Positions 231 to 27,151 of a DNA stretch of 32,584 nucleotides are shown in pieces. The first letter of the stretch is position 1; each line of letters starts with the position of its first letter. This DNA is from a virus (Duplodnaviria; Heunggongvirae; Uroviricota; Caudoviricetes). Position numbers and translations under genes: made by a program. Below the pieces are notes generated by a model, which searched no databases, was not told where the DNA came from, and was given only the letters and a program-made list of their open reading frames with translations. The stretch is taken from IMG/VR virus record IMGVR_UViG_2565956616_000004; one strand, given 5' to 3'.

Positions 231-3218
231 ATGAGCTTAAGCGATCAGGTGGTAATGGCCACCAGCATAGAAACGCTGATCGAGCTGCTAAAGAACCTGC
301 CCGATTATGGGCGGGTTTCGTATGTGGTGACAGCGAAGGGAGACGAGGTAAAAACAGCGTTTGATATCGTCGATGCCTCAGCTATTTTGGTATCCAATAC
401 TCTGGATGGGAAAATTAATCCTGACTATCCCCAGGAACTTCAGCCGCGCGACCGGACCCGCGCATCCAGCCTTCTTCAGGTTAACCAGATATCCAAAGAT
501 TTGCGGCCTGCTCAGCTTACTGATTCCGGTTTATCCAGCCATGGCGCGCCGATAATTGGTGAGGATAATGCCGTTGAGTCAGGTAATGGACGGACCATGG
601 GGATCATCAAAGCCTATCAGGACGGCAATGCGGATCGGTATCGTGAGTACCTGATTGATCATGCGACCGAATTCGGCATACGACCTGAAAAGGTTGAATC
701 AATGACGGCTCCGGTACTGGTGCGCCGCCGGTTAACTAAGGTTGACCGCGTTCAGTTTGCCAAGGACTCAAATATTTCTGATCTTCAGGAAATGGCAGCC
801 AGTGAAAAGGCTTTTGTTGATGCCGACAGCATAACACCGGCGATGATGGCGCTTTTTAACCCGTCAGAAAGCGGAGATCTGCTTAGCCGCAGTAATGACG
901 CGTTTATTCGCGGATTTATGACGCAAGTTGGTGCCACACAGGCGGCTGGCCTTGTAACTGAAGATGGGCGACCAACACGGCAACTTGTAGACCGTATACA
1001 AAACGCGATCTTTGCCAAGGCATATAAGGATGCGCGCCTGGTAAGGATGGTTGCAGAAGAACCTGATCCGGACATGCGTAATGTTCTGACGGCGCTTAAT
1101 GCGGCAGCCAATGATTTTGTCCAGATGCAGGCTTTATCAGGAGAAGCGCACAAGCAGGCTGTGACAACTATTGTTGATGGCATTGAGACAGCGGATAGCC
1201 TCGATAAAAAGGCGCTGGCGGCATTGAAAGATGCGGTAGACCTGGTAAGGCAATCGAAGGAGTCAGGCCAGCATATTACCGATGTTATTGCTCAGGGGGA
1301 TATGTTCAGCGAAACGGCCCCGGAAGTGAAAGCACTCGCGTTGTTCATCGTCGCGAATAACCGTAGCGCGAAGCGTATGGCCTCCGCCTTTAAGTTGATG
1401 GCTCAACGTATCAATGATGAGTTACAGCACCAGGGCCAGGCGCTGGGGGATATGTTTGGCGGTGGTGATGTGTCGTTACAGGATATCCTTCGCCAGGTGT
1501 CTCAGGAACTGGAAAACGAAGGCATGCAAGGGATATCCGGCGGTCTTTTCGAGTCCGTTTCCGGCGGTAGTTACAATGGTGTTGCTCCATATACCAGTTT
1601 GCTATTACATCGGGCATCCGGCATCAAAGACATTATTCATCTGATCAGGCTGCTTTCCCGTACAGATCCCCAGGATGAACAGCTTGTACAAGTGCTTGCG
1701 CATTTTGTTCGAATGCCTGTTGCCGACGTGAATAAATGGTGCCGATTATTCGGTATCAGCAATTCGTTACTTCGCGGATTGTTAAATCACGCATCCTCCC
1801 TTGGGCGCGACGGCTTTGATGAGATAGCGCAGGCGATACAAAACGGAGATATGCCACCAGCTATTGACTGGTTTTCCATTCGCCCAACCAGGGTGAAAGC
1901 ATTCCTTAGCGCGGCGCATTCGGCATCACCATTGGCAGAAATGGTTCAGAGGTTGTCGCTCATATTCACAGACCATACCGCGTTGGGTGATCTGACTCTG
2001 GACGAGATGAAAGAAGCCTCCATTCAGTGGGCCGATCAACAAAATGAGGTTAACTCAGACTTCTTGCCAGCATTCAGGAAGGCCGTTAGTAAAGCGGATG
2101 ATGCCCGTGGAATTCTGAAGGCATTTAAGGCATTGCAAAGTCGTGTTAATAAACATGTCGGTGATATCGATGGGGTAACGGCGGAAGGCCGGGATATCCT
2201 TAAAGAGCACGGCATAACGCCAGAGTATATTGATGAGATCAGGACTGATATGCAGCGTGAGGTCGTATCGTCCCTGCAAATCGTAGCCAGAGCGTTGGCG
2301 GATGCTAATCCGAAGAGTGCGGCCATTGTTAACCGGGTTATTGGTGACATTGAAGCATCGGAGGGCATGGGGGCGCTGAAACTCTTCCTTTCGCGAGCGT
2401 TTAATCCTAACGGCAATATTCTCCCTGGCATTATTGGTGAGGCTAAAAAGTATGTCAGTGAAGAAGAACTTGAGCAGCTTGACCAACTACTTAAGCGATT
2501 CTCATATAACCCGCAGACACGCTGGCAAATGAATCAGCGAAGTATGGGTTCGGTCCACGAGAAAGTGTTATCTGCCATGAACAGTGCGATCGCAAACTCA
2601 TCCGTATCTGAAGAAAAAGCTCTTGAGTGGGCCGACTCTTTTATCACAGAAGAAGTGGAAGAAGCCCGCGCTGGACAGAATGGTGGGATAGACCTGCGCA
2701 AGGAACTTGCTGATATTTATCGCCTGACCGGCGGTAAAATTTCGACCTTAACAAAGGTGGTTCACCACCAGGGAAGGGCATATGCAAATCTTAATGGTGT
2801 TGTTGCTGTCAATTTGAACGATGAAAATGCAAGTGCACTGTGGCACGAGCTGGGTCATCATCTTGAGTACAGTAACCCTGGTTTGTTAGAGAAAGCCCGG
2901 TCATTCCTGAAGGCCAATGTTGAAGGGGATAAGCCATCTTTCGTTAATATCGGTGGGCGTGGCAAGCCTGAATGGTGCTTCAGATCTCGATTGAGTAATA
3001 TTTATATGGCGAAGGTATACCCGCCAGCCTCAGTGAGTAATTCCGGGAAAATTCGGCAGAAATCACCGACTATTTCCAAAACGTCAGCAACGGAAGTATT
3101 CTCTATGGCTCTTCAGTTGTATCATGACAAAGAGGCCGCTGCCGCATCACTGATGAATGGTGACGGATTGCTGGAACTGTTATTAGGTGTGGCAAAGGAG
3201 CTAAATAATGCAGATTAA
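231..3218 (+). CDS. Large (995 aa) phage protein with an HExxH zinc-metallopeptidase-like motif; by position possibly the DdrB-like last large gene of a Dar antirestriction operon
   Basis: ATG at 231 follows an in-frame stop at 222-224. The uninterrupted 995-codon ORF contains WHELGHHLEY, with HELGH encoded at 2844-2858. The product name is tentative and based on size and context, not a recognised sequence. Confidence 0.55.
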   Translation: MSLSDQVVMATSIETLIELLKNLPDYGRVSYVVTAKGDEVKTAFDIVDASAILVSNTLDGKINPDYPQELQPRDRTRASSLLQVNQISKDLRPAQLTDSGLSSHGAPIIGEDNAVESGNGRTMGIIKAYQDGNADRYREYLIDHATEFGIRPEKVESMTAPVLVRRRLTKVDRVQFAKDSNISDLQEMAASEKAFVDADSITPAMMALFNPSESGDLLSRSNDAFIRGFMTQVGATQAAGLVTEDGRPTRQLVDRIQNAIFAKAYKDARLVRMVAEEPDPDMRNVLTALNAAANDFVQMQALSGEAHKQAVTTIVDGIETADSLDKKALAALKDAVDLVRQSKESGQHITDVIAQGDMFSETAPEVKALALFIVANNRSAKRMASAFKLMAQRINDELQHQGQALGDMFGGGDVSLQDILRQVSQELENEGMQGISGGLFESVSGGSYNGVAPYTSLLLHRASGIKDIIHLIRLLSRTDPQDEQLVQVLAHFVRMPVADVNKWCRLFGISNSLLRGLLNHASSLGRDGFDEIAQAIQNGDMPPAIDWFSIRPTRVKAFLSAAHSASPLAEMVQRLSLIFTDHTALGDLTLDEMKEASIQWADQQNEVNSDFLPAFRKAVSKADDARGILKAFKALQSRVNKHVGDIDGVTAEGRDILKEHGITPEYIDEIRTDMQREVVSSLQIVARALADANPKSAAIVNRVIGDIEASEGMGALKLFLSRAFNPNGNILPGIIGEAKKYVSEEELEQLDQLLKRFSYNPQTRWQMNQRSMGSVHEKVLSAMNSAIANSSVSEEKALEWADSFITEEVEEARAGQNGGIDLRKELADIYRLTGGKISTLTKVVHHQGRAYANLNGVVAVNLNDENASALWHELGHHLEYSNPGLLEKARSFLKANVEGDKPSFVNIGGRGKPEWCFRSRLSNIYMAKVYPPASVSNSGKIRQKSPTISKTSATEVFSMALQLYHDKEAAAASLMNGDGLLELLLGVAKELNNAD

Positions 3219-3519
3219 AATCGCAGCGCCATTAGGCGGAGATGCCATTATCGAATTTGATGATAATGAAGAAGTTTCCGGGCGTTTAAGCATTATCTCC
3301 GGTGACATTACCGAGGACATGATCGCTGAAGCCATAGCTGGGGCAAATCCCAATAGCTATATGGGATTCGTTAACACCCTTGATGCTCCCGCAAGTGATG
3401 TTCTCCGAACGCTGCATCTTTACGCTGGCTGGTTTGTTGATTGGCCAGCAGTAGATGGTGGCGATGAGGACGACGACGACGATGATTTTGGTGATCATGT
3501 AGACCAGATCGTATATTGA
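3208..3519 (+). CDS. Small protein (103 aa) with a poly-acidic C-terminus (DGGDEDDDDDDFGD), function unknown
   Basis: ORF overlaps the stop of the upstream 995-aa gene by 11 nt and is followed immediately by a terminator hairpin. Confidence 0.5.
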   Translation: MQIKIAAPLGGDAIIEFDDNEEVSGRLSIISGDITEDMIAEAIAGANPNSYMGFVNTLDAPASDVLRTLHLYAGWFVDWPAVDGGDEDDDDDDFGDHVDQIVY

Positions 3520-3520
3520 A

Positions 3521-3548
3521 GAAATCCCGCCAATTGGCGGGATTTTTA
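3521..3548. terminator. Bidirectional intrinsic terminator between convergent genes
   Basis: Perfect stem aaatcccgcc / ggcgggattt with loop aatt (3522-3545), followed by a T-run on the plus strand and a U-rich tract on the minus strand. It lies between stop codons at 3517-3519 (+) and 3551-3553 (-). Confidence 0.7.
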
Positions 3549-3550
3549 CC

Positions 3551-4645
3551 TCACGAGAAACTCTTTTCTGATGTCAGCCAACAGTGCTCGTGCATATCTC
3601 TTGGTGGTTTTTCGACAAATGCCTCTTCAGCCACATCCTGCCAGGGGATTTGTTTAGCCCATTCAGTTATAGCGTTATGGTTTGCCGAGAATAACGGTAT
3701 TGTATAGGCCTTCAGCCAGTCTAATGTGCTGGAGTTGTGTTTTTGAGCGTGATGTTTCGCATGGTGTTTGGCGATCACGATCGTAGGCACTACCCATTTA
3801 CTACCGTCAGTCATTGTGAAGTGCATATTACGGGGAACAGATGACTTTTCCATCAACTCCCGAATCCCGGGGAATTTCCCCAAGATCAATCGGCGATATT
3901 CATCGCTATTGCGCCCACCAAACTCTTTGGCTTTGAATTCAAGATATGCTTCAGAAACGAGAGGTGAATCCTCTGTGTTTAGAGTTATCGCCGTGAAAAA
4001 ACCAGCAGGATTGTTTTTACTATGGGCCAACCGGTGATGCGAATCATAAAAGTACCCTTTCTCGCGTTCCGATGGTTTCGACAGCAACAGCAGGCGCGAG
4101 TCATAATTGGTTAAATTGCCAGTTATCACTGCATGAGCGCGATCGCTGATTTCCGCCGAGTTAATAACGATGAAAAGATCGTGCGGTCCAGTAAAACCAG
4201 CCAGAGACTCTTCGTTATTCAGACAATAGGTTATATAGACGCATCCCCATGTTTCACTGATATGCACCAACCCTTTGTCAGGGTGTATTCTGAAATAATT
4301 GCCAAGAAAAGGGTGTTTTTGGGTAACTCGCTCCCAATAACGGAACATATAGTCAATTATTGTTTTTCGACAATCGTTAATCGCAGGAGAAACAACCACT
4401 GTACGGGAACACGAATACAGTATTGTTTGCAGGATGCTAATCACTGCCACAATAGAGGTTTCCCCAATACCATGTGGTGTGGTGGCAGTGATTTTGGCTC
4501 CGGTGTTCTTTATCGCGTTAATAATTTTTGCTTGATGAGGTGTTAACTCAATGTCAAGCAACTCTTTTGCTGCCAGTTCCCAATTGTCTTTATACCGTTC
4601 TATCAGTGCTAACCAGGCAGATTCATTCTGTATACGATTAATCAC
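3551..4645 (-). CDS. PacB-like terminase large-subunit ATPase-domain paralogue (364 aa) with degenerate Walker A and B motifs and no nuclease domain
   Basis: Clear colinear similarity to the PacB encoded at 23848-25332 (for example GYFYDSHHRLA vs [25 protein letters not shown] vs [14 protein letters not shown]). Walker A is HGIGETS vs GHGTGKS in PacB (K to E); Walker B is LFIVINSAEI vs [10 protein letters not shown] (DE to NS). Confidence 0.65.
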   Translation of the reverse strand: MINRIQNESAWLALIERYKDNWELAAKELLDIELTPHQAKIINAIKNTGAKITATTPHGIGETSIVAVISILQTILYSCSRTVVVSPAINDCRKTIIDYMFRYWERVTQKHPFLGNYFRIHPDKGLVHISETWGCVYITYCLNNEESLAGFTGPHDLFIVINSAEISDRAHAVITGNLTNYDSRLLLLSKPSEREKGYFYDSHHRLAHSKNNPAGFFTAITLNTEDSPLVSEAYLEFKAKEFGGRNSDEYRRLILGKFPGIRELMEKSSVPRNMHFTMTDGSKWVVPTIVIAKHHAKHHAQKHNSSTLDWLKAYTIPLFSANHNAITEWAKQIPWQDVAEEAFVEKPPRDMHEHCWLTSEKSFS

Positions 4646-5426
4646 TTTCCACCTCTTCCGTGGTGTTTTCTTGCAGTTCTGTTAATGCAGCACGACATAG
4701 GTTCCGGGCATTGGCTATAGCCACACTTTTGACTTCATCCGTCATCGTGCAGGTAATGTACTGATCGAGTTCTTCAGCGCGGATGATGCTTTTGCCAATC
4801 AGAAACTGTATTTGCCATAGCAGATCGGCATCCATAATCAGAATTTCTGCCGGGCCTTCAGGGCCAGCCGGGAAGGAAACATAAGACTGTTTGCCCAGGC
4901 CGACAACTCGACAACTTGCTTCAAGAATTGCGCGCTTGAGGTCTGACTTTATAACGGAAACAGGTTGATTTTCACCAGTGATTACGCCGTTGACATGGAA
5001 AGGCATGTAGCTTGAAATACGCTCTACTTTCCACACGCCAGCAAGCGATCCTTCATGCAGCACAATGGGGGTAACCGCGAGTTTCATCTCACCATATAAC
5101 TGCTGGCAGATAGCTGGATTGCTGAATACATCTAAAGGCTCACATTCAAACAGCGGCGCAATCTGCATGAGGTCCATCATGGTCATCCCTGGGGTACGAG
5201 CAGTAATGAATTTGCGCATACCAGTATCCATTGCGCTCCAGATTGCTACACCATGCTTTTTGCTCACTTCTTCAGTAAAGCCAAGGTGGCACATGATGGT
5301 TTTTTCGATAGCCAGATCAGAGATAGAAACCTTTTCGCCAGGTACTCCATCATTATTGATGGTCACTTCGACACTCTGGCCATTACGTAGGCGGTATTGA
5401 ATGGTTTTAGTATTTTGTGCTGTCAT
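4638..5426 (-). CDS. Hypothetical protein (262 aa)
   Basis: ORF taken from the internal ATG at 5426 (MTAQNTK...) rather than the longer track ORF; it overlaps the start of the downstream PacB-like gene by 8 nt. No recognisable motifs. Confidence 0.5.
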   Translation of the reverse strand: MTAQNTKTIQYRLRNGQSVEVTINNDGVPGEKVSISDLAIEKTIMCHLGFTEEVSKKHGVAIWSAMDTGMRKFITARTPGMTMMDLMQIAPLFECEPLDVFSNPAICQQLYGEMKLAVTPIVLHEGSLAGVWKVERISSYMPFHVNGVITGENQPVSVIKSDLKRAILEASCRVVGLGKQSYVSFPAGPEGPAEILIMDADLLWQIQFLIGKSIIRAEELDQYITCTMTDEVKSVAIANARNLCRAALTELQENTTEEVESD

Positions 5427-5628: not shown

Positions 5629-6117
5629 CTAAAACGGAATATCGTCTTCAAAGTCCATTGGAGGTTCGTTATTGGCGCTGCTCTGAGGTTTGCCGCCACC
5701 GCTGTATTGCTGGTGGTTTTGAGGTTGGTTTGACTGCCCCCAGCCATTTGAGGACTGTGAATCGTCGCGGCGAGTGCCGATCATTTGCATGGTGCCGCCC
5801 TGGCTGACGATAATTTCCGTCGTGTAACGTTCTACACCGGCGTCATCAGTCCACTTACGGGTTTTAAGTTTCCCTTCGATGTAGACCTGAGAACCTTTTC
5901 GTAAATACTCACTCGCAATTTCAGCAAGTTTTCCGAACAAAACGACTTTATGCCATTCTGTTTGCTCTTTCTGTTGGCCCGTTTGCTTATCGCGCCATGA
6001 TTCATTCGTTGCGATGCTGAGTCTTCCGACTGCGCCGCCATTTGGTATATACCTGATCTCCGGGTCTTGCCCCAGGGTACCAATCAGGATGACTTTGTTT
6101 ACACCGCGTTGTGCCAC
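5629..6117 (-). CDS. ssb: Single-stranded DNA-binding protein
   Basis: 162 aa; N-terminal OB-fold consensus ([20 protein letters not shown]), Gly/Gln-rich linker and the acidic C-terminal tail DFEDDIPF. The start appears to be GTG. Confidence 0.9.
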
Positions 6118-6136: not shown

Positions 6137-6153
6137 AAATTAATTAGAGCAAT
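6137..6153 (-). promoter_or_regulatory. C1 repressor operator-like 17-mer upstream of ssb
   Basis: Minus-strand sequence ATTGCTCTAATTAATTT, one mismatch from the P1 C1 operator consensus ATTGCTCTAATAAATTT as I recall it. Confidence 0.55.
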
Positions 6154-6286
6154 AATGTATATCTTTGAAACGTGGCTAACAAGTGATTTGCATTATCCTG
6201 TGCCTTCTAAAGGGATCGAGTCAGTCGGTATTGGCTGTGAATGAGTGTTTGTCCTGGAGCGTAAAAAATTCGCTTATGAGGTCTTT

Positions 6287-6844
6287 ATGAAGGGAAAAAC
6301 AGCCGCAGGAGGCGGTGCAATTTGCGCTATCGCGGTGATGATTACCATCGTGATGGGTAATGGCAATGTGCGAACCAACCAGGCGGGGCTTGATCTGATT
6401 GGTAACGCTGAAGGTTGCCGACGTGATCCATACATGTGCCCGGCGGGGGTATGGACTGACGGGATCGGTAATACACACGGGGTAACGCCGGGTGTGCGAA
6501 AAACCGACCAGCAAATCGCCGCTGATTGGGAAAAGAATATCCTGATCGCTGAACGCTGTATTAATCAGCACTTCCGGGGCAAAGACATGCCCGATAATGC
6601 CTTCAGTGCAATGACAAGCGCGGCATTCAATATGGGATGCAATAGCTTACGGACCTACTACAGCAAAGCGCGAGGCATGCGAGTAGAAACGTCCATCCAC
6701 AAGTGGGCGCAGAAAGGGGAATGGGTGAATATGTGTAACCATCTCCCTGATTTCGTGAACAGTAACGGCGTGCCCCTGCGAGGTTTAAAGATTCGCCGTG
6801 AAAAAGAACGCCAGCTTTGCCTGACGGGGCTTGTCAATGAATAA
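6287..6844 (+). CDS. lyz: SAR-type endolysin (T4-lysozyme fold)
   Basis: From ATG 6287 with a GAGG Shine-Dalgarno. N-terminal Gly/Ala-rich weakly hydrophobic segment (GGGAICAIAVMITIVMG) followed by an E-x8-D-x5-T catalytic triad pattern (NAEGCRRDPYMCPAGVWTDG). Confidence 0.8.
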   Translation: MKGKTAAGGGAICAIAVMITIVMGNGNVRTNQAGLDLIGNAEGCRRDPYMCPAGVWTDGIGNTHGVTPGVRKTDQQIAADWEKNILIAERCINQHFRGKDMPDNAFSAMTSAAFNMGCNSLRTYYSKARGMRVETSIHKWAQKGEWVNMCNHLPDFVNSNGVPLRGLKIRREKERQLCLTGLVNE

Positions 6845-7135: not shown

Positions 7136-9866
<2,731 letters not shown>

Positions 9867-9933: not shown

Positions 9934-12900
9934 ATGAACAAGCTATCTATGGGGGTGTTTCGCTGTTCAAGTGTCAGCGAAATATTGAAATACATTAGGG
10001 CAATAACATCTCACCGAGCGCCGATTAAATACGGCGTGGAAAAGGTGGAAGGCAAAAGCTATGACCGACTGCGCCGTGAGGCGAATCAGAAGGCGATAGA
10101 TTTGCTTAATTCGCTGGTGGACGGCGCGACACTGACAGATGAACAGCGCCAGATCCTGGCTGGGTACACCGGTGAAGGCGGCATTGGCGGGTCCGTCTCC
10201 GAATATTACACACCAAAGCCGATCGCTGAAGGTGTCTGGGAGATCATGAAGCTCTACGGCGCGGACGTAGGTAACACTCTGGAACCATCGGCGGGAACCG
10301 GCGTTTTTAATGAGACAAAACCGGTTGGTACGGTGATGACCGCGACTGAGATCAGCAGTGTTTCCGGTCGTATAAACCAGCTGTTGCACCCGGAAGACAG
10401 CGTACAGATTTCTCCGTTCGAACAACTGGCTGTAAGCACGCCTAACGATTCATTCGACCATGTTGTGGGTAACGTTCCGTTCGGTGGTCGTGATAACACA
10501 CGCAACATCGATAAGCCTTACGCAGAAGAAACGGACATGGGTTCTTACTTCATGCTCCGCATGCTGGACAAGATAAAGCCAGGCGGATTCATGTGCGTGA
10601 TTGTGCCGCCGTCCATTGTTTCAGGTTCAAACATGAAGCGGTTACGCCTGCGCCTATCACGGAAAGCTGAATTTCTTGGTGCCCACCGCTTGCCTACCGG
10701 TACTTTTGACGCAAACGGGACCAGTACAGTTGTTGATGTGGTGCTGATGCGCAAACATCCGGCAGAGATGGCTGAGAAAATCCCCCTGGTGGATGAAAGC
10801 ACTCTCGAATCGGCAAATGTGCTTTGGCCAACGTTTATTTCTGGCAAGTGGTTTGAAAAGGACGGCCGCCGGTTTGTTCATGGCACCCAGGAAAAGGGCT
10901 TCCAGGGGCGTATTGAGGTTCGTGCCGACGGTCAGATTGATAACCAGGCTCTTAAAGCGAAGCTGATTCATCGTTTCGAAAGCCGTATCGACTGGTCTTT
11001 GCTCGATATGGCTGAACCGTCACCGACCGCAGACGTTGTTGGTGAAGGGGAAATGCGCCTGATTAATGGCGTATGGCAAAAATATGCTGGTGGTCGCTGG
11101 ATTGAAGCTGATGCCGGGAAGGAACTTAAGATCGATGCTGCCAGTTATGGCGCGGATAGCTGGGAGGCTCTTCAGCGTAACCTGACTACAACAGAAGGCC
11201 GTCTCGGCATGACATTTACCCAGATGGCAAATGTCCGCGATAAGTACACCACATCAATCAGCGACGATATGGTGCAGCTGGTGGACTGGATTAACAGCCA
11301 GCCTGAAAAATACCGTGAACGCTTGTATCGCGGGGCGATGATTGGCCGGATGTTAATTGAATATCAGGACATGAAGGCCGCCGGGCATAGTGCTGAACAA
11401 ATCGAACAGCAGCGCCTTTCTCTGGTATCCCGTTTGCAGGCAGAGATTGACCGTTTTGGTAACCCCGGTCGCGGTCCGATAGCGAAATTGTCGGGGAGCG
11501 GTGCGCGCGCCTGGTTTGCTTTCCGTGGTGCAATTAAGCTGGATGGCACTATTTCTGACGAGCTGACAGGGAAGCTGGTTACGCATGATTCCAGCGCAAG
11601 TTATGACTCCACCAGCTATCAGGACACCCTGCGTTATCTCTATAGCGATCTCACCCGCGATCCAATCCAGCTCGATGATTTCCGCCTTGCGTTTACCGGC
11701 GAACTGCCAGCCAGTGATGAAGAGTTGCTTAATTTATTGGCCAGCACCCCTGGTATTGCGGTTTCACCGTATGGCGGGATTGTTCCGTTCGCCCGCGCCA
11801 CCAGCGGCGACATTAACGAGATAGTGGCTCCAAAACAGGAATTCCTCGCCACACTCCCCGACGGTCCAGTAAAGAACAACGTCCTTAATCAGCTGGCAGC
11901 TATCGAAGAGAAGCGCATCAAGACGCCAGCAGAGAATATCCGGTTTAAGCTCAATAGCCGTTGGTTCGACCGTTCCGTCATTCTGGAATTTTTGCAGGAA
12001 AACGGCTATCCGGATCTGCGCTATGTGCAGTCAGTGCAGCTGGAAGGCGACGAAATGGTTTCTGACACCTATCACGGTGGTGATGGTCTGTTCGTCGGGC
12101 ACCGATACGGTGTCGTCCAGCGCAAGGATAAAGAAACAGGTGAGATTCGCTACGAGTGGGACCGTAAATCAGGTGAAAACGCGACCGGGTTCCCGGCACA
12201 GCTGGAAAAGTATCTCAATGGTGCGCGTATCGGTGGCAAAGATAGCGCGACGGCGAACGGCTACCGCGAGCAGATGGCACTGCTTGAGGACCAGTTCAAT
12301 AAGTGGATCAAGACGCACGATCGCTACGATGAGCTGGTTGCCAAATACAACGATGTGTTCAATAGCAATATCCCGTATGAACACTCTGGCGATCCGCTTG
12401 GGTTGAAGGGATTAAGCGGTAAGCGCCAGCCATTTGATTACCAGAATAGCGAGGTGCGCCGACTGTCCGAAGATGGGCGCGGCATCCTGGGCTTCGGCAC
12501 CGGGCTGGGTAAAACCACGACCGCGCTGGCGCTTGAGGCGTTCAACTATGAGAACGGTCGCTCCACCCGTACTGCGTATGTAGTGCCTAAATCAGTGCTG
12601 GAAAACTGGTATTACGAAGCAAAAGAATTCCTGAGTGAAGAGGCATTCAGTAACTACCTGTTCGTCGGTCTTGATGTGCTGATGGATGGCGATCAGATTC
12701 GCCAGGTGCAGGTGCTCGATGAGAACGGTAAACCTGTTCTTGGTACTGATGGCACTCCAGTTATGCGCGATGCTCTTAAGCTGGCAGATGAAGCCACTAT
12801 CACGGCGCGGATGAACGCGATCCCGCACTCAAATTACCGTGCAGTCGTGTTTACCAAAGAACAATACGCCCGCATTCCGCTACGTGATGACACCGTAGAT

Positions 12901-15900
12901 GAGCATGCACAGGATATGCTTTATGACTTCGTTGCCGCCGGACGCGTAGCCAGCGCAATGGACTCCGACTCCCACCGCAAAGAGGCCGCGCGTCGCCGGG
13001 TATTGTCGGAGTATTCAGATACCGGCACCGAAAAAGCAGAGAAGTATCCGTACTTTGAGGATATGGGCTTCGATAGTGTGATCGCTGACGAAGGTCACAA
13101 CTACCGCAATAGCTATAAAAATGGTCGCGAAGCGTCACAACTGGCCTATCTGCCCACCAGCGCGGTGGCGCAATCGGCGCGAGATATGGCAATTAAAAAC
13201 GCGTACCTGATGAAAAAGAATGGTGGGCGCGGCCCGGTTCTCCTGACTGCAACGCCAGTCGTTAACACCCCGATCGATGCATACAACATGCTTTCTCATG
13301 TTCTGCCGAAGGAATACTGGCAGAACATGGGGATCTACGGTCCTGATGACTTCGTTAAATTCTTCGGCAAGACCAGGCTGGAAACGGTACAGAAAATCAG
13401 CGGCGAAGTTGAAGAAAAAATGGCGCTGGTGGGTTTTGAAAACCTTGATGCGCTGCGCGGCATATTCCATCGCTGGACAACGCTTAAAACGGCGGAAGAC
13501 GTTAAGGATACCGTGGAGATCCCGGAACTGGACGAACACCAGCAGGATGCACCACTTACTGAAGAACAACTGGCGGCGTATGAAGAATTGCGTCAGCAGG
13601 CGGAAGCGGCGGCCAAAGCCAACAATGGTGTAACGACCTCGGTCAATGAAGACGGCGTGATTGAGCACGAGAAAGCCCGTCCGATCTTCTCAATAATCAG
13701 GGATATGGACCGCGTATGTACTGACATGGACCTGTACTATCGCCGGATCACCTATCGTTTCCTGCCGGAGTACGCCGATGCGGTGCAGCAGCTGGCAGAC
13801 AGTTTGCCTAAACAAGCCACCAGCGAAGACGACGACAGTGATGATTCAATCACGCAGCAATCGCAATACTCCCTGATAGATAAGGGCGAGTTTATTCAGT
13901 TGCAGGTTCCGGAAGCGTTCGAGCAGGAAGTGAATAAGCGCCTGGCCAGGTTTGGCATTGACGAACAGACCGTAACTCACCCCGTTACGCCCAAATACGC
14001 GAAGCTGATTGCCACGCTGAAGGAGTTTTTCCCGGAAGGTAAGCAAATCATCTTCACCGATGAAAAAACGCAGCACCAGAAGCTCAAGCGCATTATCTGC
14101 AATGCTCTTAACCTTGAACCTTCAAAGGTGGGGATACTGAATGCTCAGACGGTTGCCGAGGCAGGTAAAACCGGTAAGAAACTGAAAGCGGTTAAACCGC
14201 CGAAAGAGTTACCGGATGAATCAACAGATGCACAGATAGCGAAATACAACGAGCAAATGGCTCTGTATGACGCCTATATCGCGCAGCAAAATGAAATGTC
14301 GTTGGGCGGTCTGGAAAAGATTGCAGCCGACTTCCAGGAGGGCCGGACTCCGATCATCATCTGCAACAAAAAGGCAGAGGTGGGTATCAACCTGCATCGA
14401 GGAACGACTGACATCCATCATCTGACGTTGCCATGGACACCAGCCAGTATCGCACAGCGTAACGGTCGCGGTGCCCGAGTTGGTTCCAACCGTGCAAGCG
14501 TTCGCGTTCACTACTACTGCGGCAAGGGTTCTTTCGATGAATACCGACTGAAGACGCTGAAGCGTAAAGCAGGCTGGATCTCCGATATCCTCCGTTCAGA
14601 TAAGTCAGAAATGGAGAACGCCGACGCCAACGATATGATCGAAATGCAGATGTATACCGCTAAGGATGATGGCGAACGTCTGGCAATGATGCAGGTTCAA
14701 ATGGATAAGGCGAAAGCCGCGCAACGCGCTCGCCAGAAAGAACAGGCTACTATCGACCTTCAGAACTACATCAAGGCGCAGCACGCAGCTGGCGAGGATG
14801 TGGAGGTACTTACCGCTGAATTAGAGCGAAGCAAAGCGGAACTTGAAAAGACCACCGCCGAGGTAGCTAAATTCAAACAGGCGGTAATGGCCAAAGCAGC
14901 TGATAACGCAGACTGGAAAGCCCGCTGGGGTAGCGTCCATCACACAGACCGTACGTTGTTAGCACAGTATCGCGCGTCGTTGAAAAGCGCCATTCAGCGC
15001 AAGGCTAATATCTCTCAAGCCATCTCCCGCTATGAGAAATTATTGAACCGTACTCAGAAGGCCGCGACGGATATCAAACGCCTGCGCCCGCTGGTGGAGG
15101 ATGCAATAAATAAAGGCATTCTGGATGTTGATCCTGACTTGGTTAACCATGCGAGTGAGTTCCTTGTTATCGGCGATCGCTCATGGCGTGTAGGCCAATA
15201 CTACGATTGTGCCGGTGATATCGTTCGCATTAAGTCGCTGGACTTCGACAGCCAGCGCGCAGACGTGGAGATTATCTTTACCTTCAAAGGTACCAAATCG
15301 GGTAACTGGGATGTGAAGACGCTGGATAAACAGGTTGATGTAACTCCCGATGAAGATGCTGTTATGCAGAAAATCAGTGGTGGCGTCTCCATTGCCGGGA
15401 TTAACGACATCATTTCCTGTGACGATTTCTACCGTTTCCAGCAGCGCGGCATGATCAAAATCACTGACTCATACGGCGTTCAGACTACAGAGTCAGGCTA
15501 TAGCATTGATTTTGTTGGTACCTATACGGACCCACTGAAGCATGCGGTTTACCCGGATCGCCGTGACGGCGCGCTGAAGTCGTCAATTGCAAAATGGGTG
15601 CTTGGTATGATGTCGGAAGGGAATAACCGCCAGATCCGTTCGGCAGAAACATTCCTGGTTGAACTGTTTGGCTCCAATTATGGCGATGTAATCGCGTCAT
15701 ACGGAGATACGCTATCCCCTGAAGCAATTCAGGAGAAAATAGCGGATGCGATCGCCAGAATGCCGGAAAAAACAAGCCAGGGGGCTACTCGTAACGGGGA
15801 TTCTGAACTTGAAGTCACCAATGCCATTTTCGGTACCAATGAGTTCCGGGCGTCAGATTATGAGATCACCACAGCACAGTTTGGCACCATTGGCATTTAC

Positions 15901-16701
15901 AGCAATAAAGACGAGATCAAGCAGGCAATGGACGCAGCAAGTGCGCGCATTGCAGCAGAACGGAAAGCCAATCTGAATCATGCAGTCGCCGCGCTGACTC
16001 AATCGTGGGTAACAGCAATCAGGGAGGCCGCCACCACAGGAAAAATCACACCGGCAATTGCGGATGTCGTAAACGACGGCTCTAAATTTATGGATGCCTA
16101 TCAAATGGATGCGGTGCAGTTGCCATCAGCCTATGGCCAACTCAGCTATCGCATGACCTACAACCTGGTATCAATGTTTTCCGACCTTGCCATCCTTGGG
16201 CTGGTGGACCTTAACGAGGTTACGCCGGAATTGCTCAGCATGCGCAAGAACCATGTGGAGATATTGCACAGAATTAACACGGTACTTTCCGGGCGCACCG
16301 ATGAAGAGAAACAGGCAGACGCTGATCGGATAAACCTGGCCCTAGGCAACATCACGGAGGAAGAAATTGCCGCCAGAAACGAGAAACAAGAAGAGTTATC
16401 ATCAATACAGGGTGATGCCACCAGCATAGCTCAGTCTCTTGGTCTGAATTATCGCGTATCCACCGCCGACCTGAAGATGATGTACGCACCAAAATTCGCC
16501 GCTGGCGAGGTATTTGGGCTTCAGGAGGCGTCCGGCATGAAAGGCATTCTTTTCCGTGCGAAAGACGCAATCAAGGCGAAATTCGGCGCTCGCTGGCTGC
16601 CAGCGAAGGCGAAGAACAGCGATTTCCCGGGTAACTGGTGGATTATCGAGACAAAACACAACGTGGCGGACGTTCTGGCCGTCATCCAACAATACGCATA
16701 A
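9934..16701 (+). CDS. darB: DarB-type antirestriction protein: N6-adenine DNA methyltransferase fused to a superfamily-2 helicase (2255 aa)
   Basis: AAGGA Shine-Dalgarno then ATG at 9934. Methyltransferase motif I-like EPSAGTGVF and motif IV-like DHVVGNVPFGG; helicase Walker A GFGTGLGKTT, motif II VIADEGHNY, motif VI QRNGRGARVG. Length and domain order match what I recall for P1 DarB. Confidence 0.85.
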   Translation: MNKLSMGVFRCSSVSEILKYIRAITSHRAPIKYGVEKVEGKSYDRLRREANQKAIDLLNSLVDGATLTDEQRQILAGYTGEGGIGGSVSEYYTPKPIAEGVWEIMKLYGADVGNTLEPSAGTGVFNETKPVGTVMTATEISSVSGRINQLLHPEDSVQISPFEQLAVSTPNDSFDHVVGNVPFGGRDNTRNIDKPYAEETDMGSYFMLRMLDKIKPGGFMCVIVPPSIVSGSNMKRLRLRLSRKAEFLGAHRLPTGTFDANGTSTVVDVVLMRKHPAEMAEKIPLVDESTLESANVLWPTFISGKWFEKDGRRFVHGTQEKGFQGRIEVRADGQIDNQALKAKLIHRFESRIDWSLLDMAEPSPTADVVGEGEMRLINGVWQKYAGGRWIEADAGKELKIDAASYGADSWEALQRNLTTTEGRLGMTFTQMANVRDKYTTSISDDMVQLVDWINSQPEKYRERLYRGAMIGRMLIEYQDMKAAGHSAEQIEQQRLSLVSRLQAEIDRFGNPGRGPIAKLSGSGARAWFAFRGAIKLDGTISDELTGKLVTHDSSASYDSTSYQDTLRYLYSDLTRDPIQLDDFRLAFTGELPASDEELLNLLASTPGIAVSPYGGIVPFARATSGDINEIVAPKQEFLATLPDGPVKNNVLNQLAAIEEKRIKTPAENIRFKLNSRWFDRSVILEFLQENGYPDLRYVQSVQLEGDEMVSDTYHGGDGLFVGHRYGVVQRKDKETGEIRYEWDRKSGENATGFPAQLEKYLNGARIGGKDSATANGYREQMALLEDQFNKWIKTHDRYDELVAKYNDVFNSNIPYEHSGDPLGLKGLSGKRQPFDYQNSEVRRLSEDGRGILGFGTGLGKTTTALALEAFNYENGRSTRTAYVVPKSVLENWYYEAKEFLSEEAFSNYLFVGLDVLMDGDQIRQVQVLDENGKPVLGTDGTPVMRDALKLADEATITARMNAIPHSNYRAVVFTKEQYARIPLRDDTVDEHAQDMLYDFVAAGRVASAMDSDSHRKEAARRRVLSEYSDTGTEKAEKYPYFEDMGFDSVIADEGHNYRNSYKNGREASQLAYLPTSAVAQSARDMAIKNAYLMKKNGGRGPVLLTATPVVNTPIDAYNMLSHVLPKEYWQNMGIYGPDDFVKFFGKTRLETVQKISGEVEEKMALVGFENLDALRGIFHRWTTLKTAEDVKDTVEIPELDEHQQDAPLTEEQLAAYEELRQQAEAAAKANNGVTTSVNEDGVIEHEKARPIFSIIRDMDRVCTDMDLYYRRITYRFLPEYADAVQQLADSLPKQATSEDDDSDDSITQQSQYSLIDKGEFIQLQVPEAFEQEVNKRLARFGIDEQTVTHPVTPKYAKLIATLKEFFPEGKQIIFTDEKTQHQKLKRIICNALNLEPSKVGILNAQTVAEAGKTGKKLKAVKPPKELPDESTDAQIAKYNEQMALYDAYIAQQNEMSLGGLEKIAADFQEGRTPIIICNKKAEVGINLHRGTTDIHHLTLPWTPASIAQRNGRGARVGSNRASVRVHYYCGKGSFDEYRLKTLKRKAGWISDILRSDKSEMENADANDMIEMQMYTAKDDGERLAMMQVQMDKAKAAQRARQKEQATIDLQNYIKAQHAAGEDVEVLTAELERSKAELEKTTAEVAKFKQAVMAKAADNADWKARWGSVHHTDRTLLAQYRASLKSAIQRKANISQAISRYEKLLNRTQKAATDIKRLRPLVEDAINKGILDVDPDLVNHASEFLVIGDRSWRVGQYYDCAGDIVRIKSLDFDSQRADVEIIFTFKGTKSGNWDVKTLDKQVDVTPDEDAVMQKISGGVSIAGINDIISCDDFYRFQQRGMIKITDSYGVQTTESGYSIDFVGTYTDPLKHAVYPDRRDGALKSSIAKWVLGMMSEGNNRQIRSAETFLVELFGSNYGDVIASYGDTLSPEAIQEKIADAIARMPEKTSQGATRNGDSELEVTNAIFGTNEFRASDYEITTAQFGTIGIYSNKDEIKQAMDAASARIAAERKANLNHAVAALTQSWVTAIREAATTGKITPAIADVVNDGSKFMDAYQMDAVQLPSAYGQLSYRMTYNLVSMFSDLAILGLVDLNEVTPELLSMRKNHVEILHRINTVLSGRTDEEKQADADRINLALGNITEEEIAARNEKQEELSSIQGDATSIAQSLGLNYRVSTADLKMMYAPKFAAGEVFGLQEASGMKGILFRAKDAIKAKFGARWLPAKAKNSDFPGNWWIIETKHNVADVLAVIQQYA

Positions 16702-17461: not shown

Positions 17462-18766
17462 CTATATAAACTTAGATACAATATCGTGAATCTGTTGTAG
17501 CGGGATATCTTCCATCTCATTCTTAATAAGAGAGCGGTTAGATGCTGTCAGTGAAGGCCATTTTGTTTTCCAGGCTAGATATGCTCGCCATGAGTAGCCT
17601 GTTTCGTAAGGTTTATTCATATAAGTCATTGAGTGTTCAACCGCATGTATGTATTTTTTCTCAAAATTGGTTCCTTTTACTTCAAATAAACTACCGAAAT
17701 AAATAAGCCATTTTGCCAGGTGTTCATACTGCTCCCATGCGCCAGGCTTTTTAGTAAGTTCTATTTTTTTATCTATTATATTACAAAAAACATTTAATAC
17801 ATTTTCATTATTCCAGCTATATCCAGATGATGAAATGGAGGAAATGATATGATAAAAAGAATCCTCTAGCTTCAAGAACTCTATTTTATACTCTCTTCCG
17901 TTTTTTATTACCGATTTGATTGAGTGCCTCAATTTGTCTTTTATTTTTTTTGCTTCTGGAATTTTATCGTTAAGTTTTCTAAAGAAATCAGATACCTCTG
18001 TTTTATCTATAACCCTAACCCCATAGCAGGAAAAATAGTAATCTTTAATAGGTTGCAATAGTTCCCCTCGGGAAACAAGGAAAATATTGGAGGACATTAC
18101 GTTGTCCCGTGAAAATACCTTATATTCATTTATAATAGCCTTTAGGTTCGCGTCACTTAGAGAATAGCCAAGGATAACAATAGTGTTTTCATGTAGAACT
18201 GTGCTTAGTTTATTAGAAAAGTAAGAATTACCATTTATAAATCTGAAATAATCCTCGCTAGTAACAACCATGTCTGATGGGGAGTCTATAGAACCGTGAA
18301 CATGGTAGACTTTAACCTCACAATTATATTTTGGAATTGGCAGGCCGGGGGTGATTGTACACGTTCGATTCTCTCCAGCCAGCTTTTCTGCTAACTTGTC
18401 ATAATTTGTCGTAATTACTTTAAATGTGTTTTCTTTGAAAAAGTCTTGAATATATTCAATTGATGGATCAAGTTCGATTGAGGCTATGATTTTCTCAATC
18501 TCTTGGTAAATATTTTTCCCCGAAAGTATAAATTTTAGTGCAATAACCTGAGCAGCTTCTTCAAGGCTAAGGTCTTTTGCTTTTCCATCAGGAAATAATT
18601 CCTCTTTGAGTGAGTCACCATCCTTCAATAAACCGCACAGTTGCTCCAATAAAGATTGCCAACTTGGGGCTTTATCATCAGAAACAGCCTTTGAAAATCC
18701 AGTGCCTGTAAGAAAGCACAGCCTATGTGTAGCCGCTGCATAGGCAATTTCTATATACTCGCTCAT
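17462..18766 (-). CDS. SIR2-family (SIR2_2-like) domain protein, 434 aa: N-terminal SIR2 NADase-like domain plus an unassigned C-terminal domain of about 200 aa; candidate anti-phage effector
   Basis: ATG at 18766 with a GGAG Shine-Dalgarno 6 nt upstream. Motifs FLTGTGFS (aa 18-25), ITTNYD (aa 118-123; N121 codon at 18404-18406) and HVHGS (aa 155-159; H157 codon at 18296-18298). The gene is visibly AT-rich (roughly one-third GC by eye) while the flanking genes are near 50 percent. Confidence 0.85.
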   Translation of the reverse strand: MSEYIEIAYAAATHRLCFLTGTGFSKAVSDDKAPSWQSLLEQLCGLLKDGDSLKEELFPDGKAKDLSLEEAAQVIALKFILSGKNIYQEIEKIIASIELDPSIEYIQDFFKENTFKVITTNYDKLAEKLAGENRTCTITPGLPIPKYNCEVKVYHVHGSIDSPSDMVVTSEDYFRFINGNSYFSNKLSTVLHENTIVILGYSLSDANLKAIINEYKVFSRDNVMSSNIFLVSRGELLQPIKDYYFSCYGVRVIDKTEVSDFFRKLNDKIPEAKKIKDKLRHSIKSVIKNGREYKIEFLKLEDSFYHIISSISSSGYSWNNENVLNVFCNIIDKKIELTKKPGAWEQYEHLAKWLIYFGSLFEVKGTNFEKKYIHAVEHSMTYMNKPYETGYSWRAYLAWKTKWPSLTASNRSLIKNEMEDIPLQQIHDIVSKFI

Positions 18767-19653: not shown

Positions 19654-20214
19654 TTAGTGCATGATGTTTGCCATCTCATAGGCGTCAGCCAGCAACTCCA
19701 TCTCTGACTTGTTCAGCAAGGTGAATTCTTTCTTGCCTCCAACCACACCATCGGCATGAACAGGGACCAGCCAGGGGTATTTTTCTCTTACTTCAGCCGG
19801 TGCTGCATGCTGGTGGTGCCATCTACAAAGTGGCAATTGCTTTTTGTGACAACCAGGCGCGGTACGACCGGAGATATGGTGCAGAGACACCTCTTCAGAT
19901 ATTACTCCATGCATATAGCAGGCAATGCAGGGGAGAGCGCCAAGAGCATTGGCTATGCGCCGCTCCTCCGCCGTCGGTGTTCGTCCCTTCAAGCCACGAG
20001 ATTTTATTTTTACCGCGCTTTTCCGCGTTTTGCTGGCTGGTGGGCGCTCTTTCTGTTTAGCGATACGGCGGTCGATAGTATTCCGCATTTTCTGATATTG
20101 AGATTCTCGCCAGGCCGGATCAGCCAACTTCTCCCGTTGCCGAGCGATCGCTCGTTCTCTGGCTGCCTTCTGCCACTTACGGTGCTGTTCAATTTTTTGT
20201 TCGATTGTTTTCAT
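19654..20214 (-). CDS. ref: Ref (recombination enhancement function), HNH-family endonuclease
   Basis: 186 aa from ATG 20214; basic low-complexity N-terminus (MKTIEQKIEQHRKWQKAARERAIARQREK) and a Cys/His-rich HNH-like core (CIACYMHGV...SLHHISG...CHKKQLPLCRWHHQ). Matches my recollection of P1 Ref. Confidence 0.85.
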   Translation of the reverse strand: MKTIEQKIEQHRKWQKAARERAIARQREKLADPAWRESQYQKMRNTIDRRIAKQKERPPASKTRKSAVKIKSRGLKGRTPTAEERRIANALGALPCIACYMHGVISEEVSLHHISGRTAPGCHKKQLPLCRWHHQHAAPAEVREKYPWLVPVHADGVVGGKKEFTLLNKSEMELLADAYEMANIMH

Positions 20215-20219
20215 ATGGC

Positions 20220-20245
20220 AAAAAAAAGGCGGCCTGATGGCCGCC
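20220..20245 (-). terminator. Strong intrinsic terminator in the ref leader, ending 5 nt before the ref ATG
   Basis: On the minus strand: 7-bp GC stem ggcggcc / ggccgcc with loop atca, followed by U8. Confidence 0.6.
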
Positions 20246-20305
20246 AATGATGTCAAGGAGTTAAGTAATGGCAACGTCTTCGTAGTTGACAAAAACTGCG
20301 GCTCA

Positions 20306-20329
20306 ATTATAGCAATCAATTAGAGCAAT
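20306..20329 (-). promoter_or_regulatory. C1 operator-like site overlapping a minus-strand TATAAT (candidate C1-repressed ref promoter)
   Basis: Minus-strand ATTGCTCTAATTGATTG (20313-20329) followed by TATAAT (plus coordinates 20306-20311); a second AGCAAT half-site is adjacent. Confidence 0.55.
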
Positions 20330-20822: not shown

Positions 20823-21854
20823 CTAATCGCCATCTTCCAGCAGGCGCACCATTGCCCCTGTTTCACTATCCAGGTTACGGATATAGTTCATGACAATATT
20901 TACGTTGGTCCAGCCACCAGCTTGCATGATCTCCGGTATTGAAACTCCGGCGCGGGCCATATCTCGTGCGGCTCCGACACGGGCACTGTGTCCAGACCAG
21001 GCCAGGTACCTCTGACCAGAGTCATCCTTAGCCCCGTAAATCAATCGGTGAGTTGCTTCAAAAATCCCTTCCAGGGCGCGAGTTGATAGCTGGCTGGTGG
21101 ATGATGGCGAGGCAACACCATTTTTTCTGACCCGGCAAAACAAGTAGTTATTCGGATCATCAGCCACACCAGAGACGGAAATCCATCGCTCGACCAGTTT
21201 AGTTACCCCCAGGCTAAGTGCCTTCTCTACACCTGCGGTGCTAACCAGCGTTTTCGTTCTGCCAATATGGATTAACATTCTCCCACCGTCAGTACGTGAG
21301 ATATCTTTAACCCTGATCCTGGAAATTTCGGCTATACGTAACAGGGTGTTATAAGCAATCCCCAGAAATGCCAGATTACGTATATCCTGGCAGCGCTCAC
21401 TATTTTCCATGAGTGAACGAACCAGGTCGAAATCAGTGCGTTCGAACGCCAGCGCCTGTTTTGCACGCTCACCGGCATCAACGTTTTCTTTTCGGATCCG
21501 TCGCATGACCAGTGAAACAGCATTGCTGTCACTTGGTCGTGGCAGCCCGGACCGACGATGAAGCATGTTTAGCTGGCCCAAATGTTGCTGGATAGTTTTT
21601 ACTGCCAGACCGCGCGCCTGAAGATATAGAAGATAATCGCGAACATCTTCAGGTTTTGCGGGAAACCATTTCCGGTTATTCAACTTGCACCATGCCGCCC
21701 ACGACCGGCAAACGGACAGAAGCATTTTCCAGGTATGCTCAGAAAACGCATGGCGATCCCTGAACATGTCCATCAGGTTCTTGCGAACCTCATCACTCGT
21801 TGCATCGACCGGTAATGCAGGCAAATTTTGGTGTACGGTCAGTAAATTGGACAT
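20823..21854 (-). CDS. cre: Cre tyrosine site-specific recombinase
   Basis: 343 aa, MSNLLTVHQNLPALPVDATSDEVRKNLMDMFRDR...RLLEDGD. Near-identical to Cre as I remember it, with a handful of substitutions (for example DRHAF, PAKPEDV, AEISRIRV). Confidence 0.97.
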   Translation of the reverse strand: MSNLLTVHQNLPALPVDATSDEVRKNLMDMFRDRHAFSEHTWKMLLSVCRSWAAWCKLNNRKWFPAKPEDVRDYLLYLQARGLAVKTIQQHLGQLNMLHRRSGLPRPSDSNAVSLVMRRIRKENVDAGERAKQALAFERTDFDLVRSLMENSERCQDIRNLAFLGIAYNTLLRIAEISRIRVKDISRTDGGRMLIHIGRTKTLVSTAGVEKALSLGVTKLVERWISVSGVADDPNNYLFCRVRKNGVASPSSTSQLSTRALEGIFEATHRLIYGAKDDSGQRYLAWSGHSARVGAARDMARAGVSIPEIMQAGGWTNVNIVMNYIRNLDSETGAMVRLLEDGD

Positions 21855-22313: not shown

Positions 22314-22330
22314 ATAATTATTAGAGCAAT
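22314..22330 (-). promoter_or_regulatory. C1 operator-like site (immC region)
   Basis: Minus-strand ATTGCTCTAATAATTAT. Confidence 0.6.
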
Positions 22331-22390: not shown

Positions 22391-22413
22391 TTGACAATTG
22401 CTCTAATAAATTA
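22391..22413 (+). promoter_or_regulatory. C1 operator overlapping a TTGACA -35 element upstream of coi-c1
   Basis: TTGACA at 22391-22396 followed by ATTGCTCTAATAAATTA (22397-22413), 16 of 17 matches to the operator consensus. Confidence 0.65.
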
Positions 22414-22651: not shown

Positions 22652-22861
22652 ATGGCTTTCATTCCACCAACCATCGACGACGTTAGACATTGCTCTAACG
22701 CTTTATCTGTAGACCCCGCCGAAACCGACGCTGCCCGCGCCATTGCTGAACACTACTCAAAGATATCCAATCAGGAGTACCGCATCACCCAAGACGACCT
22801 GGATGATCTCACTGACACAATCGAATATCTCATGGCCACTAACCAGCCAGACTCACAATAA
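22652..22861 (+). CDS. coi: Coi (C1 inactivator)
   Basis: 69 aa, MAFIPPTIDDVRHCSNALSVDPAETDAARAIAEHYSKISNQ...; immediately upstream of c1 on the same strand. Confidence 0.85.
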   Translation: MAFIPPTIDDVRHCSNALSVDPAETDAARAIAEHYSKISNQEYRITQDDLDDLTDTIEYLMATNQPDSQ

Positions 22862-22949
22862 ATGCACTAATAAATCTATTATTTTCGTTGGATCCTTCTA
22901 TAATGGTGGCCAACAACTCCCAGTGTAATCCGCTGTGAGTTGTTGGCCA
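22861..22949 (+). promoter_or_regulatory. c1-proximal control region: operator-like site, TATAAT and a 13-bp leader hairpin
   Basis: AATGCACTAATAAATCT (22861-22877, operator-like), TATAAT at 22899-22904, then a perfect 13-bp inverted repeat tggccaacaactc / gagttgttggcca (22907-22949, 17-nt loop) before the GGAGGAGGA Shine-Dalgarno of c1. Confidence 0.45.
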
Positions 22950-27134: not shown

Positions 27135-27151
27135 CAATACATTAGAGCAAT
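27135..27151 (-). promoter_or_regulatory. C1 operator-like site upstream of the lpa-position gene
   Basis: Minus-strand ATTGCTCTAATGTATTG with an adjacent second AGCAAT half-site. Confidence 0.55.

Follow-up and report, generated by a model that had tools for sequence, protein, structure and literature searches.

In tailed phages, terminase large subunits (TerLs) serve as hallmark genes that are regarded as single-copy and strictly catalytic. In other systems, pseudo-enzyme paralogues may regulate or poison their active relatives – as with pseudokinases and with the inactive subunits of ATPase assemblies, such as clamp-loader delta/delta' – and satellite or phage proteins that bind terminase subunits, including Ppi and TerS-S (the latter a homologue of the terminase small subunit, TerS) of Staphylococcus aureus pathogenicity islands (SaPI) and Rpp of phage-inducible chromosomal islands (PICI), redirect or block packaging. 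No account of an inactive terminase paralogue turned up in full-text searches of the literature searchable here. The window analyzed in this work is a stretch of 32,584 nucleotides (nt) from a virus (IMG/VR record IMGVR_UViG_2565956616_000004) that represents part of a P1-type (Punavirus) phage-plasmid genome. Alongside the TerL PacB, it encodes a second, PacB-like protein of 364 amino acids (aa), which we refer to, together with its gene, as X. Judged from its sequence, X is a derivative of an ancient duplication of the ATPase half of P1-type PacB that has lost the residues for ATP binding and hydrolysis and has no nuclease domain; it is selectively maintained and is not a pseudogene.

The original prediction, made from the DNA letters, had described this gene as a paralogue of the N-terminal ATPase half of PacB. 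Its coordinates, strand, and length agree with the list of open reading frames (ORFs), and pairwise alignment confirmed the relationship: X and the PacB encoded in the same genome share 94 of 266 residues across the whole ATPase domain (35% identity, BLASTP E value 5e-55). The alignment is colinear, running from residue 11 to residue 272 of both proteins, and MAFFT alignments gave the same register. The phrog_5902 profile matches X (E 2.6e-187) as well as PacB (E 2e-151). The parts of X and the two terminase genes of the window are as follows.

3551–4645, minus strand: gene X, the 364-aa PacB-derived pseudo-ATPase; GTG start at 4645 and stop at 3551–3553 (ORF list)
3860–4645, minus strand: aa 1–262 of X, the degenerate N-terminal TerL-type ATPase fold, aligning to PacB 11–272
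4454–4480, minus strand: aa 56–64 of X, TPHGIGETS, the degenerate Walker A motif (Lys replaced by Glu62)
4151–4177, minus strand: aa 157–165 of X, LFIVINSAE, the degenerate Walker B motif (Asp-Glu replaced by Ile161-Asn162)
3611–3838, minus strand: aa ~270–345 of X, the C-terminal conserved domain with the HAKHHA helix, supported by model confidence, phrog_17928, and homologues
23848–25332, minus strand: pacB, the bona fide TerL, with intact GHGTGKS and IIDEAS motifs and a nuclease domain; the parent family of X
25332–26525, minus strand: pacA, the terminase small subunit and PacB partner; a candidate partner of X

Structure prediction points the same way. An AlphaFold2 model of X built from 19 sequences has a mean predicted local distance difference test (pLDDT) score of 85.8 and a predicted TM-score (pTM) of 0.80. 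In Foldseek searches of the PDB, its best matches are the TerL ATPase domains of Sf6 gp2 (E 6e-10), P74-26 (target-normalized TM-score 0.68), D6E, and T4 gp17, and TerLs dominate the top 50 matches in BFVD. The ATPase domain governs the matches of this full-length model. The model thus has a TerL-type ASCE ATPase fold, and X is predicted to keep the N-terminal helical extension and the lid as well. Sequence searches of X and its C-terminal tail against Pfam, NCBIfam, and the PDB returned only 3ic3 (E 0.006, to the tail) and sub-threshold matches to DUF3150 and DUF5076.

To compare catalytic and framework positions, X and its relatives were aligned with 105 full-length homologues that have intact motifs (‘live’ TerLs), and columns conserved in the live set were tabulated; 12 sequences represented the group of relatives with degenerate motifs to which X belongs (the ‘dead clade’, described below). 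The Walker A motif SGHGTGKS of PacB corresponds to TPHGIGET in X, and the Lys that is replaced by Glu62 – a loss claimed in the original prediction and borne out here – is present in 100% of the live TerLs and in none of the 12 dead-clade representatives. Both Walker B acids are likewise gone, though the earlier pairing of Asn and Ser with Asp and Glu was one residue off. With the register anchored on an SDRA sequence common to the two proteins, D162 and E163 of PacB pair with I161 and N162 of X. The Walker B Glu is also found in 100% of the live TerLs and in 0 of 12 dead-clade sequences.

The losses extend beyond these motifs. The His ten residues before Walker B (96% of live TerLs) and the Ser preceding the P-loop (94%) are missing from all 12 dead-clade representatives, and the Walker B Asp, the Thr-Ala pair after strand 2, a Gln (X position 91), and the Ser-Gly after Walker B are essentially lost. 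Taken by column, the residues that live TerLs have at X positions 62, 161/162, 152, 56, 85/86, and 164/165 occur in 82–100% of the live set and in 0–2 of the 12 dead sequences. Framework residues – Q38, G59, G61, G150, G197, F199, Y200, S227, P228, G243, Y250, G256, and F258 – are kept in 10–12 of the 12. Selective loss of catalytic residues from a retained framework is what marks a pseudo-enzyme and is unlike random decay.

The nuclease half of PacB is absent from X, as had been claimed. X ends at residue 364, the first nuclease Asp motif of PacB (VDVAGG) has no counterpart in it, and residues 270–364 align to the C-terminus of the phrog_17928 family and not to an RNase H-like nuclease; since the gene hxr ends 31 nt away, there is also no room for a nuclease domain downstream. 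In common with the PacB of P1, X has the fold, the N-terminal helical extension, the Q motif, the P-loop glycines, the LAG motif, and the lid motifs GYFYDSHH, SPLV, and YR..GxFP. It differs in lacking what a functional TerL has – the Walker A Lys, the Walker B Asp-Glu, the RNase H-like nuclease, and a place in the late packaging operon – and in having another C-terminal domain. PacB is encoded in the late pacA-pacB operon, whereas X lies in a presumably C1-controlled ssb-isaA operon and, unlike PacB, is dispensable.

We next considered whether a pacB duplication has left X behind as a remnant that is decaying or without function, one of the possibilities raised in the original prediction. Its missing catalytic motifs and nuclease domain could be read in that way, as could its dispensability and its absence from P1 and from ~80% of P1-like plasmids: in PLSDB, X is nearly full-length in 119 plasmids and pacB is complete in 558, so that X is an accessory gene carried by about one fifth of P1-like plasmids. 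Yet 119 of the 120 PLSDB matches cover at least 80% of the gene, and all 364 codons are kept in nine of the ten P1-lineage copies examined. The remaining copy, from vB_EcoM-813R1 (ON470617.2), has a 1-nt deletion in a run of C at codon ~334 (position about 2141) that shifts the last ~30 codons; this near-3' change, if not a sequencing error, is a natural shortening of the disordered end.

Substitution patterns also argue against decay. Pairwise ratios of non-synonymous to synonymous rates (dN/dS, or ω) among the P1-lineage copies are 0.17–0.32. The most diverged pair has 31 synonymous and 31 non-synonymous changes (synonymous divergence, dS, 0.14; ω 0.26), with ω of 0.31 in the ATPase-like part and 0.12 in the tail. 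Together with the retained framework residues, the confident AlphaFold2 model, the clade of dead relatives, and a distant orthologue that has the same architecture and partner gene, these values make a functionless remnant very improbable, and simple decay is effectively excluded.

That orthologue, found in a distant lineage of P1 relatives, is 52–53% identical to X over its full length, tail included. Proteins of the same lineage are 57% (PacB), 48% (IsaA), 42% (Cre), and ~21% (PacA) identical to those of the window; the divergence of X is comparable with that of PacB, IsaA, and Cre, which puts the age of the gene close to that of the backbone. An IsaA homologue is encoded directly 5' of X in this lineage too, and the pair is placed elsewhere in the genome, after cre, a dUTPase gene, and a Tad2-like gene. 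The Tad2-like gene (PF11195, an anti-Thoeris family) follows the dUTPase gene and stands immediately 5' of isaA-X (L086, 6590–7234; L094, 6515–7201). A DUF2829/Tad2-type gene is annotated in the same slot in vB_EcoM-Ro157c2YLVW.

An exhaustive HMMER search of 1.84 billion representative sequences identified 749 relatives of X. By comparison, a word-indexed homologue search gave only three matches for X and two fragments for the tail, and a narrow alignment search of species-representative genomes gave only two P1-lineage copies of X and two distant TerLs, a result that carries no information on host range. Among the matches listed from the HMMER search, most of the 141 sequences of at least 200 aa have intact GK[ST] and DE motifs, and about a dozen clusters at 50% identity have dead motifs, all of them without a nuclease domain. 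Dead-clade proteins have 230–270 aa, or 364–366 aa if the tail is present, or 444 aa where the C-terminus is a different one. The 444-aa member, P0012 (L095, 8001–9335), has a different ~180-aa C-terminal extension in place of the tail, and a gene for a LysM protein follows it.

In a neighbor-joining tree, the dead relatives form one clade nested among PacB-like terminases, with the exception of P0043. All of the dead-clade genomic contexts long enough to judge are P1-type, with a C1-type repressor and a Cre-like recombinase, and also have PacA/PacB, Ref, Hot, or HumD homologues. This restriction to P1-type elements speaks for a partner that is peculiar to these phages. Genes directly 5' of dead-clade members include, besides isaA, an SSB-like ORF (homologue P0011), a radical-SAM protein gene (another homologue), and a gene for a 222-aa Ref-like RecA-dependent nuclease (PF16786; L087, 7336–8004). 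The Ref-like gene overlaps the start of the 263-aa dead homologue P0015 (8001–8792) by 4 nt, which suggests translational coupling of a nuclease with a pseudo-ATPase. Directly 5' of the 252-aa dead homologue P0016, ~880 bp (L097, 7120–8000) hold only short overlapping ORFs and no called gene.

In the window, X is the last gene of a presumed ssb-isaA-X transcription unit. The features of the window outside X and the terminase genes are as follows.

231–3218, plus strand: ddrB
3208–3519, plus strand: hxr, convergent with X, the two stops 31 nt apart
4638–5426, minus strand: isaA, 262 aa from the ATG at 5426 (mechanical ORF start: TTG at 5546)
5629–6117, minus strand: ssb, the first gene of the presumed ssb-isaA-X transcription unit
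6137–6153, minus strand: C1 operator 5' of ssb, ATTGCTCTAATTAATTT, with one mismatch to the consensus; equivalent to Ossb/Op21 of P1 (P1 annotation)
6245–6844, plus strand: lyz
7136–8185, minus strand: pro
8148–9857, minus strand: prt
9934–16701, plus strand: darB
19654–20319, minus strand: ref
20823–21854, minus strand: cre
22972–23823, plus strand: c1

At the junction of isaA and X, the stop of the former and the start of the latter share 8 nt (GTGATTAA), with a GAGGTG Shine-Dalgarno sequence just 5'. When the minus strand between ssb and X was scanned with consensus sequences, nothing resembling a promoter or a terminator emerged. Matches to the C1 operator (three or fewer mismatches to ATTGCTCTAATAAATTT) number seven in the window against 0.15 expected by chance. 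They lie at 6137–6153, 9988–10004, 20313–20329, 22314–22330, 22397–22413, 22861–22877, and 27135–27151; one is 5' of ssb and a cluster is 5' of c1. From the operator 5' of ssb, the lack of a site between ssb and X, and the isaA/X overlap, we infer that ssb, isaA, and X would be co-expressed early under C1 control, with X translationally coupled to IsaA. X is thus probably made at an early stage of the lytic cycle, from the ssb promoter that C1 represses, and not together with the late pacAB genes.

Elsewhere in the window, between darB and ref/cre – the region that holds res-mod in P1 – lies a gene for a 434-aa protein with a SIR2_2 domain (17462–18766, minus strand; Pfam E 2e-23). Its G+C content is 35%, compared with 48.5% for the window, and it is probably an acquired defence-type gene.

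The C-terminal tail of X had been described as an unrelated His-rich sequence. It is indeed unrelated to the PacB nuclease; rather than being arbitrary His-rich sequence, however, it is a conserved ~80-aa domain that is found elsewhere. Residues ~270–345 are modeled as a beta-hairpin and helices (pLDDT 74–86), and residues 345–364 are predicted to be disordered. The tail matches the C-terminus of phrog_17928 (E 1.6e-13), and an alignment of the domain from seven lineages has 13 invariant columns. X conforms to the resulting pattern, MPDGSxWxVP..VIA..(R/H)A..(Y/H)(Y/H)A ... T.PLF ... WA...(M/I)(N/P)W, and its HAKHHAQKH run is the P1-lineage version of a helix conserved as (R/H)A-x-(Y/H)(Y/H)A, which reads RAxYYA elsewhere.

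This domain occurs in several arrangements. It stands alone in P0126, a 123-aa metagenomic protein (38% identical), and in gp35 of Cronobacter phage JK004, encoded two genes after a DnaB-type helicase. It forms the C-terminus of ~470–511-aa DUF1351 proteins of Xanthomonas and Xylella phages, such as Xanthomonas phage CP2 ORF36, whose genes cluster with those for a recombinase, an exonuclease, and an SSB, and it forms the N-terminus of a 187-aa protein encoded beside a RecE-like exonuclease in Bordetella phage PHB04. The phrog_17928 proteins such as CP2 ORF36, and stand-alone homologues such as JK004 gp35, thus resemble X in this ~80-aa domain and differ from it in their N-terminal parts, which are DUF1351 or none, and in being encoded in recombination or replication modules. 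DUF1351 genes habitually adjoin genes for single-strand annealing proteins and ssb (PMC8093625).

What, then, might X do? In any role, it almost certainly acts through binding and not through catalysis. The reading that we favor, tentatively and at less than an even chance, is that X is a non-catalytic terminase-like subunit that modulates or poisons packaging by engaging PacA, PacB, or the portal. It would act purely by binding, through the protein-protein surfaces of a terminase ATPase subunit, as a regulatory or poison subunit. In this role X may restrain pac cleavage and packaging until the late PacAB proteins outnumber it; alternatively, it may interfere with the terminase of a related co-resident phage. 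The tail domain could tether X to Ssb and the recombination-replication apparatus, or to DNA. A terminase-linked role is plausible given the homology to PacB and the restriction to elements with PacAB-type terminases, and it is favored by the usual logic of pseudo-enzymes: as in other such paralogues, catalytic residues have been lost selectively from a fold under purifying selection, and X co-occurs with its active paralogue. With SaPI Ppi and TerS-S and with PICI Rpp it would share interference with packaging by protein binding and not by catalysis. Those proteins are satellite-encoded TerS homologues or unrelated small proteins, whereas X is derived from a TerL ATPase domain and is encoded by a helper-type phage, and its interference is only proposed.

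Several observations weigh against this reading. That X retains surfaces for binding PacA, PacB, or the portal is an assumption. The gene lies ~19 kb from pacA-pacB (23848–26525), outside the packaging operon, and would be made before pacAB. The neighbors of the X family are DNA-metabolism genes (ssb twice, ref once), its upstream partner varies (IsaA, Ref-like, radical SAM, SSB), and the tail domain, which most dead-clade members lack, occurs in the recombination and replication modules of unrelated phages. Such neighbors and such a tail fit a role unrelated to packaging, and the company that the tail keeps is at least as suggestive of DNA metabolism as of packaging. The dead clade has weak support as a monophyletic group, with a neighbor-joining bootstrap of 54/100 for the core and with P0043 outside it, and the restriction to P1-type elements is based on about eight contexts.

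The same observations lead to a second reading, doubtful in itself and nearly as likely as the terminase-subunit role, in which X serves as an adaptor in DNA metabolism. Its terminase ATPase fold would have been exapted and freed from packaging, and during early replication or recombination X would cooperate with Ssb, IsaA, and/or Ref-type nucleases. By analogy with genes in the position of Gam or DUF1351, X might bind DNA ends or intermediates, recruit partners via its tail, or protect ends from host nucleases. The placement of ssb-isaA-X under a C1 operator, the SSB-like ORF 5' of P0011, and the Ref-like gene overlapping P0015 suit such a role. So do the fusion of the tail to DUF1351 in the Xanthomonas and Xylella recombinase-exonuclease-SSB module, its presence beside a RecE-like exonuclease and two genes after a DnaB-type helicase, and the habitual company of DUF1351 genes. 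All of this is guilt by association, however, and the tail that supplies much of it is missing from most dead-clade members. A generic recombination accessory might also have spread beyond P1-type elements, which this family has not, and we know of no TerL ATPase domain that acts in recombination.

The partner protein IsaA does not strengthen the case for an adaptor. Well conserved and 262 aa long, IsaA occurs in P1-type elements alone and has no match in Pfam, PHROG-annotated families, PADLOC, or PDB profiles. Its AlphaFold2 model is weak (pLDDT 64.6, with residues 31–110 modeled confidently) and has no Foldseek match below E 0.03. On this weak model, and by Pfam and PDB profiles, IsaA has no detectable likeness to the recombinases RecT/Redbeta, Rad52/Erf, or Sak4. 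We considered IsaA as a detached nuclease or relative of Ref and found an hhalign probability of 0.1% both against the PacB nuclease half and against a Ref-like protein. A PacA (TerS) paralogue, which would have made isaA-X a duplicated pacAB pair, was ruled out at the sequence level (BLASTP E 30). Some elements have IsaA without X, as where arsenic-resistance cargo follows isaA.

The genomic slot of X brings a third reading into view. Between hxr and isaA, P1 (NC_005856) has IS1 and isaB, and P7 and JL22 have porin genes; this slot is a known variable region of P1-like elements, termed RD-2 or region 2 (PMC6906374, PMC9603915). P1 positions 2016–3713 have no DNA match to window positions 3518–4621, that is, no homologue of X. 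X is absent from P1 itself and is therefore a non-essential gene. P1 isaA and isaB are themselves non-essential by CRISPR interference (PMC10695390), a study that also gives the annotation and essentiality of pacA in P1. IsaB has the same position as X and an unrelated sequence. That X is the intact ancestor of isaB, split in P1 by IS1, was ruled out by a BLASTP E value of 0.05, a different PHROG, and the lack of a DNA match in P1; the ‘IS1-associated’ genes of P1 are thus not two halves of one gene that is uninterrupted here.

A gene in so variable a slot might serve in conflict, as a decoy or poison against the terminase of co-infecting P1-type phages or satellites – a role that the original prediction had proposed – or against Avs-type immunity that senses TerL, whose receptors X would soak up or blind before PacB appears. 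We regard this as unlikely overall. It gains from the hyper-variable slot and from the Tad2-like anti-Thoeris gene immediately 5' of isaA-X in the distant lineage. For one genome pair, moreover, the isaA-X region has 92–94% nt identity (isaA 94.3%, X 92%) compared with 99.3% for pacB. Presumed early expression would suit counter-defence, and the Avs3-bound PhiV-1 terminase (8dgc) is among the Foldseek matches to the X model.

Other results run counter to a conflict role. Values of dN/dS well below 1 give no gene-level sign of diversifying selection; X is roughly of backbone age, which does not suit cargo that was traded recently; and no PADLOC-DB model matches X, IsaA, Hxr, P0126, or P0012 at E ≤ 0.1. 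Avs3 reportedly recognizes terminase via the ATPase active site with its bound nucleotide and via the nuclease site, and X has neither site. In lysogens, moreover, C1 would repress X, so that exclusion encoded by a prophage is unlikely. A more specific version, in which a domesticated dead motor domain made early jams the terminase of a rival P1-type phage or satellite, or masks the terminase fold from Avs-type receptors, is less likely still; if true, this would be the first case of a pseudo-enzyme derived from a terminase that acts in warfare between elements.

Whichever of these roles applies, the terminase-subunit role that we favor included, the family has consequences for annotation. In databases, X is entered as a ‘hypothetical protein’ or, in records such as MH422554, as ‘terminase large subunit’, and PHROGs places it with PacB fragments under ‘unknown function’. 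For X, the terminase label is functionally wrong and could mislead predictions of packaging type or TerL-based phylogenies. The tail, for its part, is a small uncharacterized domain that tracks phage recombination and replication modules.

These results contrast with the view of TerL as a single-copy catalytic gene: P1-type phage-plasmids carry an ancient, maintained family of dead, nuclease-less TerL paralogues that comprises at least 12 clusters at 50% identity. X in the P1 system offers a genetically tractable case for asking what the non-catalytic surfaces of a motor protein can be used for – candidate uses being the regulation of packaging, the linking of packaging to replication and recombination, and conflict.

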